From a virus (lineage: Duplodnaviria; Caudoviricetes), in IMG/VR virus record IMGVR_UViG_3300015050_000842, positions 1 to 64,000 of that record: a stretch of 64,000 nt of DNA. One strand, given 5' to 3'. Below, piece after piece: positions 3,389 to 60,591 of the stretch; positions within the stretch are counted from its first letter, which is position 1, and each line of letters starts with the position of its first letter. The position numbers were made by a program, and so were the translations under genes. The notes under the pieces are model-generated. The model saw only the letters and a list, made by a program, of their open reading frames with translations, was not told the origin of the DNA and did no database searches.

Positions 3389-3928
3389 TTAAGCCTCGTT
3401 AAGCGATAATTCTCCCGAATATGATAAATATACCTTACGAACATTTTTAGGCTCTCCTATGGCATATTTTGGGCGTCTTGCACCAAGTAATCTACTCTTT
3501 GCAATAAAAGCAAACCCAACTGCATTAGATTGATTACCTCCGTACACTAAAAACGCATTGTCATTCTCTCCAACATAGAATCCTACATGACCACCATTGT
3601 CCCTTGAAAATACTAATACATCCCAAAGCATTTCACGACCTTTAGTAACTTCTGTTCCCCAATTCATCCATTGTCTTGCAGCGAGTAACTTACCTGAATC
3701 AAATTGATAGCCTGACCGTTTAGCGACAACACCTACAAACAAACCGCACCAAGGAATATCATCATCGGTTTACCAACCTGATACACCGACCTCTTTAGCC
3801 CACGCCTTTATATTTGGATTACTGCCCTTACCTTTTAATTCAAGTGTGCCGTAATGACGTATAGCCTCTACAAGCATTTTTGGAGAGGATTCGTTATAAA
3901 GCCAATTATATCTTTGTGGTAGAGTCAT
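3389..3928 (-). pseudogene. TIGR02594-family (CHAP/NlpC-like) endolysin with an in-frame TAA at 3770-3772
   Basis: ATG at 3928 (ATGA overlap) reads MTLPQRYNWL...EVGVSGW*TDDDIPWCGLF...GGHVGFY...GGNQSNAV in one frame; catalytic Cys (PWC) and His (GHV) motifs are present. Confidence 0.8.
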
Positions 3929-4254
3929 TTATCCTTATGATTTAACATAACCTCATCAATTCTCCCATGAACAACCTTGAATTGTTTATCAGTTTCCTCT
4001 CTGTGGTTTTTTAACTCATTACGTATTTCCTTATTAAAGGATTCTAACCCTGCCTGAACTGCCCTTGTTATTGTTTCTGACCGTTCACGCTCTTGACGTA
4101 GAATCTCTGCTTCACGTTCCTCTTTCTTGCTTTTAAAGGAAGCCCGAATCCACGTATTTACCGCTATCAATAAAGCTAATATAAACCCAAGTGCAGGGAT
4201 TGTTTGCGCCCAATAATCTTGTGAATCTTCATTCATCGTCTTTACATAAATCAT
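3925..4254 (-). CDS. Membrane protein, holin/antiholin-like
   Basis: One N-terminal TM segment plus a coiled coil, directly upstream of the lysin. Confidence 0.55.
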   Translation of the reverse strand: MIYVKTMNEDSQDYWAQTIPALGFILALLIAVNTWIRASFKSKKEEREAEILRQERERSETITRAVQAGLESFNKEIRNELKNHREETDKQFKVVHGRIDEVMLNHKDK

Positions 4255-19332: not shown

Positions 19333-20280
19333 TTACCCTCTTACACCTATAAAACTCTTTTGTGAATTAACTGCAACTGAAAATAACCTCAACTTCGTAG
19401 ACTCCGTAGTAATAATCTCTACTAATATCCAATTGCCCTTTAATACATCACCGTTCACTATTCCACCGACACTATTTATATCTCGCATAAATGAAGCTGA
19501 ATACACGCCCTCTACGCTATTGATTGTTACTGTTGTGACTCCGTCATCCAATGTAGATTTTGTGAAGTCCTCGGCTATTAAATCGCTTACCTGACCTAAA
19601 CTTGTTTCTACTCCTTCCTCTGTGGTTATCATTAGCATATTACTCTGTATCGACATACTCTCAAACGTGCTTACAAAAGTGACGTTCTGATTGAAAGGCA
19701 TATTGATAATCGTATTATACTGCACTCCGTAGAAATTATTACGACTAGCTGAATTATTTTCGTGTAAGTATAACTGTCCCTCTTTAAACGTATAAAGGTT
19801 GATAAACAGTCCAAATCCGCAGTCAGGGTTGTAGGTATAGAATGAACTCCACTTATTGTTTTTCTCGCTATAAACGATATTGTTACGCTGTTTAGCAGTA
19901 GTAACCGTTGCGGTGTTTTTTATGTTGAAGATTGAAACTACGCAGTCCGCAGTAGAATAGAACCGTAGTCGTGGACTTGACCCTGCACAAAGTAAAGTTT
20001 CCTGAAAGAATCCTGTGGTTATGCGTTGCGTTCCTGCCGTTGTACCCATAAATGCCTGTAAGTATAATACCCCTGCACTTCCTGTGATACTTGTTATCGA
20101 ATACGTTATCTCGTAGGTCTGTCCTGCTTCAATCGTATAACCGTTTAAGTAGATACTCCCTGCATTACACGCTTCGTGAGTGGCAATATTATCAGCAAAA
20201 GACCAACCTGTTGTAACAGACTGTGCTACTAAATCAATATCTATTGGCGTATTTTCAAGCGTGGTGAAACTCATACCCAA
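19333..20280 (-). CDS. C-terminal half of the crAss-like tail stabilisation (muzzle) protein, with its own N-terminal beta-sandwich domain
   Basis: IVYSEKNNKWSSFYTYNPD...YTFKEGQLYLHEN...RNNFYG matches the conserved C-terminus of this family. Confidence 0.7.
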   Translation of the reverse strand: MGMSFTTLENTPIDIDLVAQSVTTGWSFADNIATHEACNAGSIYLNGYTIEAGQTYEITYSITSITGSAGVLYLQAFMGTTAGTQRITTGFFQETLLCAGSSPRLRFYSTADCVVSIFNIKNTATVTTAKQRNNIVYSEKNNKWSSFYTYNPDCGFGLFINLYTFKEGQLYLHENNSASRNNFYGVQYNTIINMPFNQNVTFVSTFESMSIQSNMLMITTEEGVETSLGQVSDLIAEDFTKSTLDDGVTTVTINSVEGVYSASFMRDINSVGGIVNGDVLKGNWILVEIITTESTKLRLFSVAVNSQKSFIGVRG

Positions 20281-20286
20281 AGATAG

Positions 20287-33050: not shown

Positions 33051-33058
33051 CAAAGGTA
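33051..33058 (-). promoter_or_regulatory. -7 promoter TACCTTTG, near-leaderless
   Basis: Exact TAnnTTTG ending 5 nt before the ATG at 33045. Confidence 0.6.
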
Positions 33059-51284: not shown

Positions 51285-51464
51285 TTAATCCTTTGGTCTA
51301 TCAAATCTGTTTAATAATGTTACACCGAATTTCTCGTAGGTTGGTAATCTCTTTTCGTTAATCCAATTATATATCGTTCTCTTTGTTTTATCAACAAGAA
51401 CTGCATATTCATCTATGGTAACGAGATTTTGAATTGGTGGTAATTTTTCTTTCGTTGTTTCCAT
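51285..51464 (-). CDS. 59-aa HTH DNA-binding protein (HTH_17/excisionase-like)
   Basis: METTKEKLPPIQNLVTIDEYAVLVDKTKRTIYNWINEKRLPTYEKFG...; LVT..E.A......TIYNW...RL motif. Not in the ORF track. Confidence 0.75.
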   Translation of the reverse strand: METTKEKLPPIQNLVTIDEYAVLVDKTKRTIYNWINEKRLPTYEKFGVTLLNRFDRPKD

Positions 51465-51468
51465 ATAT

Positions 51469-51476
51469 CAAATATA
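51469..51476 (-). promoter_or_regulatory. -7 promoter TATATTTG, near-leaderless, for the HTH/replication operon
   Basis: Box ends 4 nt before the ATG at 51464. Confidence 0.6.
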
Positions 51477-51512
51477 TATACTATTTCACAAATAATGAAA
51501 TTTATTTTCAAA

Positions 51513-51544
51513 TAAAAAAGCCCCATGTCTTTCGACACAGGGCT
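51513..51544 (-). terminator. Rho-independent terminator
   Basis: AGCCCTGTGTC-GAAA-GACATGGGGCT followed by T6 (GNRA loop). Confidence 0.9.
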
Positions 51545-51602
51545 AAACGAAATGAAAAACGAAAGACTAACACAAAGAGCCTGATGAAAAGCGATTGCTC
51601 TA
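51513..51602 (-). ncRNA. Putative ~90-nt small RNA antisense to early-gene start codons
   Basis: Bounded by TACCTTTG (51603-10) and the terminator; 5' hairpin; body complementary to several translation starts. Confidence 0.55.
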
Positions 51603-51627
51603 CAAAGGTATTACTTATTTTTAGATT

Positions 51628-52308
51628 TCAAAATGATTGTAAGAAATTATAAAGTTCTTTATTCCATTTAGCATCATCTAAAGCGTTGTGTTCATTTTCT
51701 TGTTTTGGAAATCCCTGCAATTCTTTAATTGCATCGAGTCTTTCTTTAAAAAAAGAACCTTCTGAAACAATCGAGTCGGTTAATTTTCGATTTTTAATAG
51801 GTAGGTTATATGCTTTTTCGTCTAACGCCTGCTTTAAGTCACGACAATACATCGGAAAACCTTTTGGTAAGTCAATCATCCTTCCGAATAAAGAACAGAA
51901 CACTACCCAATCATAATCAGCGTAATAAGCGTAAAATTCAATATCGTTGTATTTATAAGTTATATCGTAATATTTAGCTTTTTCTATTGTTATATTATCT
52001 TGCGTACAAAACTCAAAAACTTCTTGTGCAATCTGTTTATTTGTCTTTCCGAATATTTTATGGAATTGTTCGGCAGTAAAGCGATTTCTATTATCTCCGT
52101 GAACTAAATCGCAATAAATTTTATGAATAACATTATCCTTTACCCAATTATCTGCCTTTTTGTAATCATACTCACTACTTACTGCGTAATACTCTCTACC
52201 ATCCTCTGCAACGATACCAATGCTGATTATGTCGATAAAGTGTCTACGTTTGCCGAATAAAGGTTTATGAAACCCCTCAATAAATTCTGTGTCGATAAAA
52301 TATTTCAT
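51628..52308 (-). CDS. 3'-5' exoribonuclease, Rv2179c/DUF5051-like DEDDh
   Basis: YFIDTEF...ISIGIVAEDGREYYA...YYADYDWVVF..LFG.M..LP..FP...HNALDDA. Confidence 0.88.
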   Translation of the reverse strand: MKYFIDTEFIEGFHKPLFGKRRHFIDIISIGIVAEDGREYYAVSSEYDYKKADNWVKDNVIHKIYCDLVHGDNRNRFTAEQFHKIFGKTNKQIAQEVFEFCTQDNITIEKAKYYDITYKYNDIEFYAYYADYDWVVFCSLFGRMIDLPKGFPMYCRDLKQALDEKAYNLPIKNRKLTDSIVSEGSFFKERLDAIKELQGFPKQENEHNALDDAKWNKELYNFLQSF

Positions 52309-55623: not shown

Positions 55624-55637
55624 AGTTTATAAAAATC

Positions 55638-55764
55638 GTATACCAATAGTATCTACACAACAAACTTACAGTATTAATTTAAAACTACCAAAAGTATTTT
55701 TAAAAAGATACTAACACTTCCACAGTATACCTACACGATACTGACCAGTATACCCACAGTATAC
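55638..55764. repeat. Cluster of GTATAC-cored repeats (iteron/operator-like)
   Basis: GTATAC at 55638; CAGTATAC at 55723, 55746 and 55757; CCACAGTATAC twice. Confidence 0.6.
55661..55668 (-). promoter_or_regulatory. -7 promoter TAAGTTTG heading the leftward arm
   Basis: Exact TAnnTTTG 37 nt before the ATG at 55623. Confidence 0.55.
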
Positions 55765-55769
55765 TAACT

Positions 55770-56600
55770 TTCACTTAACTTCTTGATAATCAATGAAAAG
55801 TCTAAAATAATCGCTAAGACACTTGAGTGAACTAATCCTTACTGTTACATACTTTACAAGGTTACTTAATTACAATCAAAAAATTTCGCCAAAAAATTAA
55901 GGCATCAAACTATTCAAGTAATCATTACTACAATAATACAATTCGCTATATACCAATCGGGGTGGCTTGGTAAAGTGTTTGTAATTAATAACAGATACTA
56001 CGTGTGTTTATAACCGTGATGTTGTTGTTTGATAGTCTATGTTCATAGGGGGTGGACTATCCCCCCTGTCACCACTCTCTCCAATCACAAAATAAAGTCG
56101 TTTCCTCACATGGGGGTACTATCAAACGTAAAAGTTATCCAGCTATCTCAATCGTTTATCAGTCATCCATTATAAGTAAATCAAATCAGTTACCCTGAAT
56201 GATTGTTATGCTTGTTAAGTGGTAACGGTAACAGGTTAGTGAATGGTATTGTCTTGATTAGGTTATGCAATGGAATTGGATTTGATATGTTGTGTTTTAT
56301 GTGTGTATGTAAAGGAGAGAGGGATAAACAACCAACACAACACAAGTCCGCGTATGATATAGCCAAAAAACTATAATTAATCAATACCAAAGTAATAACT
56401 ATTAAAAACCCTGTTTAATGGTATTTAAACATAGAAAACGATTATTTTGTTAGTGTTGATATATCATACTATACAATGTATAAAGTGTCTTAAAACGTCT
56501 TAAAATAGGCTTAAATTAAATGTACTGTTTTTGGTTATGTATTATTATTTAGACTTATTATAAATTGCAAATATATTATGTATTAATTAAAATACTACTT
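55770..56600. other. Long non-coding divergence region (candidate origin or packaging terminus)
   Basis: No credible ORF; strand switch; G/C-run hairpin at 56047-56067. Confidence 0.5.
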
Positions 56601-56604
56601 ACTA

Positions 56605-56871
56605 TTGTATAAGCAATTAAATAAACACTTAAATATTATGAAAACACACACTTATTTTGAAATTCAAGACGGTTCAGGATGTATTGGTAATGGTAGGGGT
56701 ATTTACAGTTTTAAAACACTTGAAGAAGCTGTAAGGGTAGCAACAGAATTTAAAAGCAATCCACGTAGTCACAATGAAAAGATGTCTGATGAAAATGTAA
56801 AGTTTTGGAGCAGTAGAACATACACTATTGTAAAAAAGATAATTCAGACGGAAGAAATTCAAACTATATAA
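56605..56871 (+). CDS. Early hypothetical protein (ATG at 56638)
   Basis: First plus-strand gene; preceded by a TAAACACTTAAATAT block. Confidence 0.6.
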   Translation: MYKQLNKHLNIMKTHTYFEIQDGSGCIGNGRGIYSFKTLEEAVRVATEFKSNPRSHNEKMSDENVKFWSSRTYTIVKKIIQTEEIQTI

Positions 56872-59591: not shown

Positions 59592-59606
59592 TTAATTTTA
59601 AACGAA

Positions 59607-59852
59607 ATGAAACAACATAACCAGATAGGAAAGTACCCTAAAAAAGAGTTAGTGCTTGACGGCAAAAAGGGCAGAAACTTTGTAACCCCTAAAAATAAAA
59701 CATATCAGTTTGACTACGAAAAAATAGGTAATTCATATAATTTTATTATAATCTATATGGGTAAAAGAATGAGAATGAAAGAATCAGATTTTAACAAGCA
59801 TAATATTGATGATATTCTAATCTCAATAGAAAATTCACTTGCCATAAACTAA
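59607..59852 (+). CDS. Early hypothetical protein
   Basis: Packed ORF. Confidence 0.6.
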   Translation: MKQHNQIGKYPKKELVLDGKKGRNFVTPKNKTYQFDYEKIGNSYNFIIIYMGKRMRMKESDFNKHNIDDILISIENSLAIN

Positions 59853-60246: not shown

Positions 60247-60489
60247 ATGAAAGCAACACAAAATCATATCCATAGCCTTGAAAGTATTTTATACCGATTG
60301 AAACAAGCAGAAAAGTATATTGAAAAGGATTGCATAGAAATTTGCCTAAAGGGAGATAATACAACTTTTTCCTATACCAATCGTAACGGAGATACATTAG
60401 GCACTCTTACAAAGTTTGTAGGCTCTGAATTAAACCAATTAAAAAACGCAATTAACGAATTAGAAAACTTAATTGAAACAAGCAAATGA
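60247..60489 (+). CDS. Early hypothetical protein
   Basis: Packed ORF. Confidence 0.6.
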   Translation: MKATQNHIHSLESILYRLKQAEKYIEKDCIEICLKGDNTTFSYTNRNGDTLGTLTKFVGSELNQLKNAINELENLIETSK

Positions 60490-60591
60490 AAACACTAACA
60501 CAAATTGATTGGCTGAAATGGATTTTAGCATCAATAACACTAACCTTTATTTTATCGGGTATTTATTCAGCATACTTAAACTTGTAAGGAG

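Follow-up and report, generated by a model that had tools for sequence, protein, structure and literature searches.

Some phages encode trans-acting RNAs directed at translation initiation regions in their own transcripts, such as the C4 antisense RNA of P1/P7 (RF01695) and the CI RNA of P4, both about 80 nt long; C4, which functions in lysogenic immunity, arises by processing of the very operon that it regulates. DapZ and MicL represent the type I 3'UTR sRNAs, which are embedded in a 3'UTR and have their own promoter. To our knowledge, phage-encoded regulatory RNAs have been described almost only for phages of Proteobacteria, and among the papers searched none described a functionally defined sRNA from phages of Bacteroidota, the hosts of which start translation without Shine-Dalgarno pairing. 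Among the Bacteroidota themselves, GibS of Bacteroides thetaiotaomicron is a trans-encoded base-pairing sRNA that masks translation initiation regions (PMC7366714), and Rfp18 is a candidate sRNA of Flavobacterium psychrophilum (PMC9723704). The Cellulophaga crAss-like phage phi14:2 makes abundant long, intergenic, early non-coding transcripts of unknown function, and uses its virion polymerase for the early genes and the host polymerase later (bioRxiv 10.1101/2020.03.07.982082).

The sRNA-like unit considered here belongs to an uncultured IMG/VR virus of 73,893 bp (~74 kb) with direct terminal repeats, the first 64 kb of which make up the window, i.e. the whole stretch of DNA analyzed (64,000 nt). 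Its near DNA matches among deposited phages are to Cellulophaga phages only and are restricted to the exonuclease gene that adjoins the unit; the phage is of the Flavobacteria (Flavobacteriia) type. Minus-strand genes run from about 55.6 kb down to 2.4 kb, and plus-strand genes from 56.6 kb onward. The approximately 1 kb separating these divergent arms (55624-56637) is non-coding and contains G+C-rich structured patches, e.g. GGGGGTGGACTATCCCCCC near 56048; no plus-strand TAnnTTTG box is found in this region before the first plus-arm gene, and the early promoters may be of another type. The unit itself lies in a 163-nt gap (51465-51627) flanked by two minus-strand genes (Table 1). On the upstream side the exonuclease gene is preceded by a NinB/Orf-like gene, while downstream a 59-aa HTH_17/Cox-like gene is followed by those for a replication-initiation protein and a primase/helicase.

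Table 1. Features of the sRNA unit and its immediate surroundings (window coordinates).
Feature	Position	Strand	Remarks
DEDDh 3'-5' exonuclease gene (upstream neighbour)	51628..52308	-	PF16473, Rv2179c-like; called 'Rnase H' in PHROGs and in Cellulophaga phage records
-33 element TTG	51629..51631	-	Overlaps the exonuclease TGA stop codon (51630-51628); 18-nt spacer to the -7 box
-7 box TACCTTTG	51603..51610	-	Bacteroidetes sigma-A consensus TAnnTTTG
Predicted sRNA, ~86 nt	51513..51598	-	Inferred start G 51598 through the end of the U-tract
5' stem-loop GCAA..GCUU-loop-AGGC...UUGU	51571..51597	-	Predicted fold; loop contains UUUUCAUC
Unpaired U-rich linker GUUAGUCUUUCGUUUUUCAUUUCGUUU, 26 nt	51545..51570	-	Candidate seed; holds UGUGUUAGU, two copies of UUUCGUUU, and CAU
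Intrinsic terminator	51513..51544	-	11-bp stem AGCCCTGTGTC-GAAA-GACATGGGGCT (51544-51519), GAAA loop, U6
Separate promoter of the downstream HTH_17 gene	51464..51476	-	-7 box TATATTTG at 51476-51469, 4 nt before the ATG at 51464; outside the sRNA unit

The original prediction, made from the sequence of the window, was of a minus-strand unit with an exact promoter, a 5' hairpin and a GAAA-loop terminator, and all three elements are present. The promoter, TTG-N18-TACCTTTG at 51631-51603, fits the Bacteroidetes sigma-A promoter and reads as the promoter of its own that a trans-encoded base-pairing sRNA possesses. Since the TAnnTTTG box spans -12 to -5 in F. psychrophilum (PMC9723704), transcription is predicted to start at G 51598, 5 nt after the -7 box; with that start the 5' hairpin exists in a register that differs from AGAGC/GCTCT. 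The terminator, with its 11 pairs and T6, is by far the best of only four terminator-like sites between 44 and 64 kb. In the predicted fold the linker is unpaired with a probability of mostly 0.7-0.99, and the 93-nt stretch from 51598 to 51506 folds at -25 kcal/mol (z = -3.4 against shuffles). A sigma-70-type promoter scan was uninformative for a phage with this type of host.

In an Rfam scan at E up to 10 no family reached its gathering score, the matches being sub-threshold and driven by the terminator (the best was RsaF, whose 31 bits fall short of its gathering score of 60), and no tRNA or tmRNA was found. Like GibS and Rfp18, the unit combines a TAnnTTTG promoter and an intrinsic terminator with a short structured RNA whose seed is accessible, and its proposed action is on start regions without Shine-Dalgarno pairing; unlike them, it is phage-encoded, has no sequence or Rfam relationship to either, and has targets that are predicted only. 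C4 and the P4 CI RNA resemble it in being phage-encoded, in their size of about 80 nt and in acting, as is proposed here, on start regions of the phage's own mRNAs, but C4 (RF01695) was not among the covariance-model matches at E up to 10, and both the host phylum and the type of promoter differ.

Diverged homologues of the unit, of three types (A, A' and B), are found in relatives, which comprise metagenome contigs fetched via exonuclease homologues at 69-77% identity and the IMG/VR contigs L002, L096 and L097. Besides the window, type A is represented by L002, an 8.3-kb contig in which the unit has a single change, C to T at 51527, turning a G-C pair of the terminator into G-U; as a test of constraint L002 was ruled out by its ~99.5% identity to the window across the whole 400-nt neighbourhood (51502-51900). 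In type A' (L087/L088) TAATACCTTTGTAGAGCAA-CGCTT-TCATCAGGCTCTTTGTGTTAGT is preserved apart from two substitutions and the 5' stem-loop is retained, while the linker lacks the 6-nt CTTTCG segment and the 3' end is an unrelated hairpin with a T-run. Type B, found in L089, L090 and the IMG/VR contigs L096/L097, has the -7 box TATATTTG, the linker GUGUGUUUAGUUUCUUUCCAU and another unrelated terminator with a T-run; its 5' hairpin, of 6 bp (CGCUCA/UGAGCG), differs from the stem-loop of type A and occupies the same position. Common to all types are the sequence UGUGUU(U)AGU...UUUC...CAU and a fold plan in which a 5' stem-loop is followed by a U-rich linker, unpaired and with CAU at or near its end, and then by a terminator. 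The terminator stems are non-homologous between types, and misalign so that RNAalifold on a MAFFT alignment was uninformative, but one is present in every type, and no ORF on either strand is conserved across the types; a short, terminator-bounded transcript of this kind, with no conserved ORF, is what the sequence of an sRNA gene would be expected to specify.

Searches of the 216 fetched loci, of IMG/VR, of metagenomes (with a 20-mer) and of GTDB genomes gave no further homologues. With conserved 18- to 22-mers the only IMG/VR matches were L002/L083 and, in the case of type B, L096/L097; a 15-base degenerate pattern had more than 119 chance matches there, none of them homologous by nhmmer, and a 20-base degenerate pattern covering the type A/A' core had no match in GTDB genomes. 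Among exonuclease relatives at 69% identity or less (L003-L016 and L091-L095) the unit is absent.

The best reading of these data, to which we assign a probability of roughly 0.75, is that the unit is an autonomous, independent sRNA gene, because it has diverged homologues, is portable, forms an island of sequence identity and contains no conserved ORF; it probably represents a new phage sRNA family. Of the earlier proposal of a trans-acting sRNA, the discrete, conserved, minus-strand sRNA-like unit is thus upheld as far as its sequence goes; a role as a multi-target repressor of early genes, or early-to-late switch, is weakly supported. Even if the multi-target model fails, the family, with its three types carried between different gene contexts, would be a useful annotation that is absent from Rfam.

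As to how such an RNA might act, the single most likely mechanism is start-site antisense pairing with phage mRNAs, which is plausible but less likely than not. Host RNA polymerase with sigma-A would start at ~51598 from TTG-N18-TACCTTTG, as read from the sequence and its conservation, and the resulting transcript of ~86 nt would consist of the 5' stem-loop, the 26-nt unpaired U-rich linker and the intrinsic terminator. The linker, through its CAU and UGUGUUAGU/UUUCGUUUA, would pair with the A-rich stop-spacer-start junctions (CTAAAC...AAAUGAAAA) of phage mRNAs and would thereby occlude the start codon in a host that does without Shine-Dalgarno pairing. The best candidate targets are the starts of 61877, 52768, 60486, 59607 and, beyond the 64-kb window, 65154. 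In favour of such an anti-start role, all three types have retained the CAU and the anti-CTAAAC segment in their linkers. Read as reverse complements, the three linkers each contain ATG together with CTAAAC or ACTAAACAC-like words, and the latter words rank with the most strongly enriched 6-mers of the 28 nt that precede plus-arm starts. Being conserved and modular, and having an accessible anti-start linker, the sRNA gene is a candidate for studying how RNA regulators act on messages that lack Shine-Dalgarno sequences and are often leaderless, and whether phages time their gene expression by such regulators.

A global shut-off of early genes, or an early-to-late switch, is quite unlikely, the statistics given below speaking for it weakly. 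We are just as doubtful of an 'anti-start' sRNA family, transcribed by host RNA polymerase, the U-rich linker of which would pair through its CAU-containing sequence with the CTAAAC...AUGAAA junctions of many plus-arm early mRNAs and so halt early translation in a Shine-Dalgarno-independent host; if true, this would be a post-transcriptional temporal switch of a kind not yet described for Bacteroidota phages.

The idea of multiple targets arose from exact matches between gene starts and the plus strand of the unit, which was said to read like concatenated gene starts. The five longer matches are real: 51544-57 equals 59599-59612 (14 nt), 51550-62 equals 58281-93 (13 nt), 51584-94 equals 61877-87 (11 nt), and two further segments match 60484-92 and 60494-504. 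Four of the five are as proposed, whereas ACTAACACAAA is located at 51566-51576, one base from where it had been placed, and the 10-nt matches at the starts of 63506, 54203 and 44186 are genuine. Eight genes share at least 10 nt with the stretch around their starts, against 1.2 expected (0 of 2000 dinucleotide shuffles), and the stretch ranks within the highest 0.15% of all 93-nt windows of the genome; those ranking alongside it are real gene starts. When real ATGAAA starts are used as queries against the other starts, the best match averages 11.5 nt, the second-best 10.0 nt, and the number of genes matched over at least 10 nt is 3.1. By the same three measures the pseudo-start at 51552 (14, 13 and 8) lies in the upper tail, about 1 in 39, and that at 51584 (11, 11 and 3) is typical. 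The suggested shuffle test thus comes out positive against dinucleotide shuffles, but real ATGAAA starts match almost as well. Being A-rich and containing AAATGAAAA, the plus strand resembles a consensus gene start, which accounts for most of the exact matches, so that the supposed concatenation, start-like as it is, amounts mostly to one consensus-like start context. As to the accompanying caveat that many genes begin with ATGAAA, 39 of the 114 gene starts do. The best gapless match in the genome, which also speaks for an anti-start role, is to the start of 61877, with 25 of 30 positions identical and one further G-U.

The claimed seed duplexes are AU-rich, with energies of -5 to -14 kcal/mol, which is the genome-wide background: the 56-nt unpaired RNA, paired with random 45-nt genome windows, gives a mean best duplex of -13.1 +/- 4.5 kcal/mol. 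Start windows were not significantly better targets than gene interiors. With a 54-nt query there was no enrichment at starts (p = 0.99); with the linker alone a two-fold excess of strong sites was non-significant (p = 0.086; Fisher p = 0.06) and paralleled the higher A content of the start windows. Compared with shuffles of the linker itself, the linker reached -18 kcal/mol or better at 20 starts, against 6.6 +/- 3.1, and its mean gain of 0.5-1.4 kcal/mol at starts was attained by none of 50 dinucleotide shuffles in three of four settings.

With plus-arm (presumed early) starts the pairing of the linker alone is stronger than with others by about 1.9 kcal/mol (p = 0.005-0.01); of 100 mononucleotide shuffles none, and of 50 dinucleotide shuffles 1-3, reached this difference. 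This preference is gone with the full 55-nt unpaired query (p about 0.2), and it is confounded by start usage, plus-arm genes starting with ATGAAA in 27 of 53 cases versus 12 of 61 for the others. Of the relatives, only L090 combines the sRNA with a portion of the early arm (14 early and 14 middle genes), and in it type B showed no early preference. A search for conserved targets over the gene families common to the contigs gave nothing with z below -2 and no consistent cognate pairing; covariation of seeds and targets in relatives, which had been put forward as a check, was looked for with no conserved or co-varying target being found. At the start of the adjacent downstream gene the pairing does not rise above background, nor does it distinguish the cognate type.

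One predicted target deserves separate mention. Pairing between the window sRNA and the start of ORF 60486 (60486-60587) extends over 11 + 10 nt, and this start ranks 7 of 114. This ORF of 33 aa is hydrophobic (MKTLTQIDWLKW...), overlaps the end of the preceding gene and probably encodes a real small membrane protein of the early arm, since it has a 42-aa homologue in L090 with 52% identity. A type I toxin-antitoxin arrangement with ORF 60486 was rejected, as the type B linker shows no pairing to the L090 homologue.

Although the unit is itself conserved and autonomous, no conserved or co-varying phage target accompanies it, which would fit a real sRNA with another function, acting on host mRNAs the starts of which have the same A-rich AAAUGAAA context, or titrating an RNA-binding protein. 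We consider this possible, though at odds well short of even. A 20-mer of the linker complement recurs in three unrelated metagenome contigs, as chance matches at what appear, from sequence alone, to be gene starts, and the seed may thus be generically anti-start; if host mRNAs or a protein were bound, the modest plus-arm preference would have to be a by-product of ATGAAA usage. Abundant phage non-coding RNAs have been reported in phi14:2 (bioRxiv 10.1101/2020.03.07.982082), which provides a precedent for such RNAs in phages of this host group, the Flavobacteriia. Those of phi14:2 are long and intergenic, however, and its temporal logic is not transferable to the window phage, because the 2470-aa protein of the latter has no DFDxD motif and its sole PHROG match is to a family of unknown function; a virion RNA polymerase of the crAss type was rejected for this ORF on the same grounds.

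An unlikely alternative to an autonomous sRNA gene is that the element is simply the 3' UTR and terminator of the recombination/exonuclease operon, with the TAnnTTTG being a chance occurrence or a weak internal promoter, and conserved by way of mosaic exchange. With no terminator between the exonuclease stop codon and the element, any read-through transcript has to stop at this hairpin as well; across the genome TAnnTTTG shows no enrichment (103 found versus ~118 expected by a rough composition estimate), and the relatives are mosaic. Against this, the -7 box is at the same place in all three types (TACCTTTG being identical in L002 and L087), and the -33 TTG, spaced by N18-N19, recurs in three of four unrelated upstream contexts, those of L087 and L096/L097 included. 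In L096/L097, moreover, the type B unit directly follows a NinB-like gene, the exonuclease gene is absent, and homology starts only about 10 nt before the -7 box (the junction of NinB and the sRNA lies in the reverse strand of L097 at ~990-1560, and in L096); the exonuclease would therefore be dispensable or mobile in this phage group. The 5' part of the unit is also more conserved than the adjacent coding sequence: between the window and L087 the 5' half (51616-51577) is 92% identical, compared with 42-75% for the end of the upstream gene and 52-72% downstream, although this island could in part reflect mosaic recombination. DapZ and MicL are similar in that their promoter overlaps the end of the upstream coding region and the sRNA uses the terminator of that operon; the unit in the window differs in moving independently of the gene upstream, be it exonuclease or NinB.

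The order of promoter, short structured RNA, strong terminator, regulatory HTH gene and replication genes would also be that of a cis-acting leader, in which the promoter and an attenuator or antitermination site (of the lambda PR'-6S-tR' or put type) control read-through into the HTH/replication-initiation module. The lambda arrangement likewise has a promoter, constitutive in that case, and a strong terminator after <100-200 nt, upstream of a block of genes. A cis-acting role is nevertheless improbable. The downstream gene varies by type, being the HTH gene, a 140-aa cassette or other ORFs, and in types A, A' and B a separate TAnnTTTG box precedes the ATG of each by 4 nt, so that dependence on read-through was not found; the block following the unit is, besides, a replication module rather than the late genes of lambda, and no Rfam leader or riboswitch scored at threshold. 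In L002 a complete cassette, with a TATATTTG box, a 140-aa ORF (3695-4117) and its own terminator, stands between the unit and the HTH gene. This 630-bp insertion relative to the window (L002:3640-4270) begins exactly after the sRNA terminator and looks like a moron-like cassette.

Highly improbable, finally, is a relic or a feature acting at the DNA level, i.e. a decayed plus-strand start or small ORF (MKNERLTQRA*), a protein-binding site, or iterons near the replication module. The plus strand does resemble real starts, that of 61877 above all, and AAACGAAA, which occurs 13 times against 5.2 expected, has two of its copies in the element; the plus-strand frame stops after 3-4 codons in types A' and B, however, the second AAACGAAA copy is a 6-nt insertion seen only in type A, decay would not give a conserved island bounded by a promoter and a terminator, and the inverted repeats vary in sequence and geometry by type, as is expected for an RNA stem and not for an operator. 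The two copies of AAACGAAA lie 12 nt apart in the type A linker (window 51545-51564), the doubling being due to the 6-nt segment that type A' lacks; the motif also precedes the starts of 59607, 61397 and 63506. A type III toxin-antitoxin RNA (ToxI-like) was rejected since there are no tandem repeats at a score of at least 30 in 51300-51800 and the downstream gene encodes an HTH_17 protein.

The position of the -7 box only 4 nt before the ATG of the HTH_17 gene implies a leaderless mRNA, and the same arrangement of box and ATG is found downstream of the sRNA in L087 and L089. In the phage, boxes of this type 3-5 nt before a same-strand ATG are seen at window 20278-20285, 33051-33058 and 51469-51476, and at 71741-71748 of the genome. 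With the box at -12 to -5, such mRNAs would start at the A of the ATG, and leaderless messages seem to be common in this phage group. In F. psychrophilum leaderless mRNAs make up only about 5% (PMC9723704).

Two further observations concern the surroundings of the unit and the starts of the plus arm. Within the exonuclease gene, a divergent patch at window 51950-52199 accounts for ~97 of the ~110 mismatches between the window and L002 over ~52800-51500, the flanks being near-identical, which points to recombination mosaicism inside a gene. TAAAC, CTAAAC or TAAACA words occur 8-20 nt upstream of 18 of the 53 plus-arm starts (56600-64500 and 200-2400) versus 10 of 61 others, with individual 6-mers enriched up to 10-fold. 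Such words often, indeed mostly, consist of the TAA stop codon of the preceding gene followed by AC in tightly packed junctions, and they may be a junction or re-initiation signal; the tendency in L090 is in the same direction (6 of 14 versus 3 of 14).
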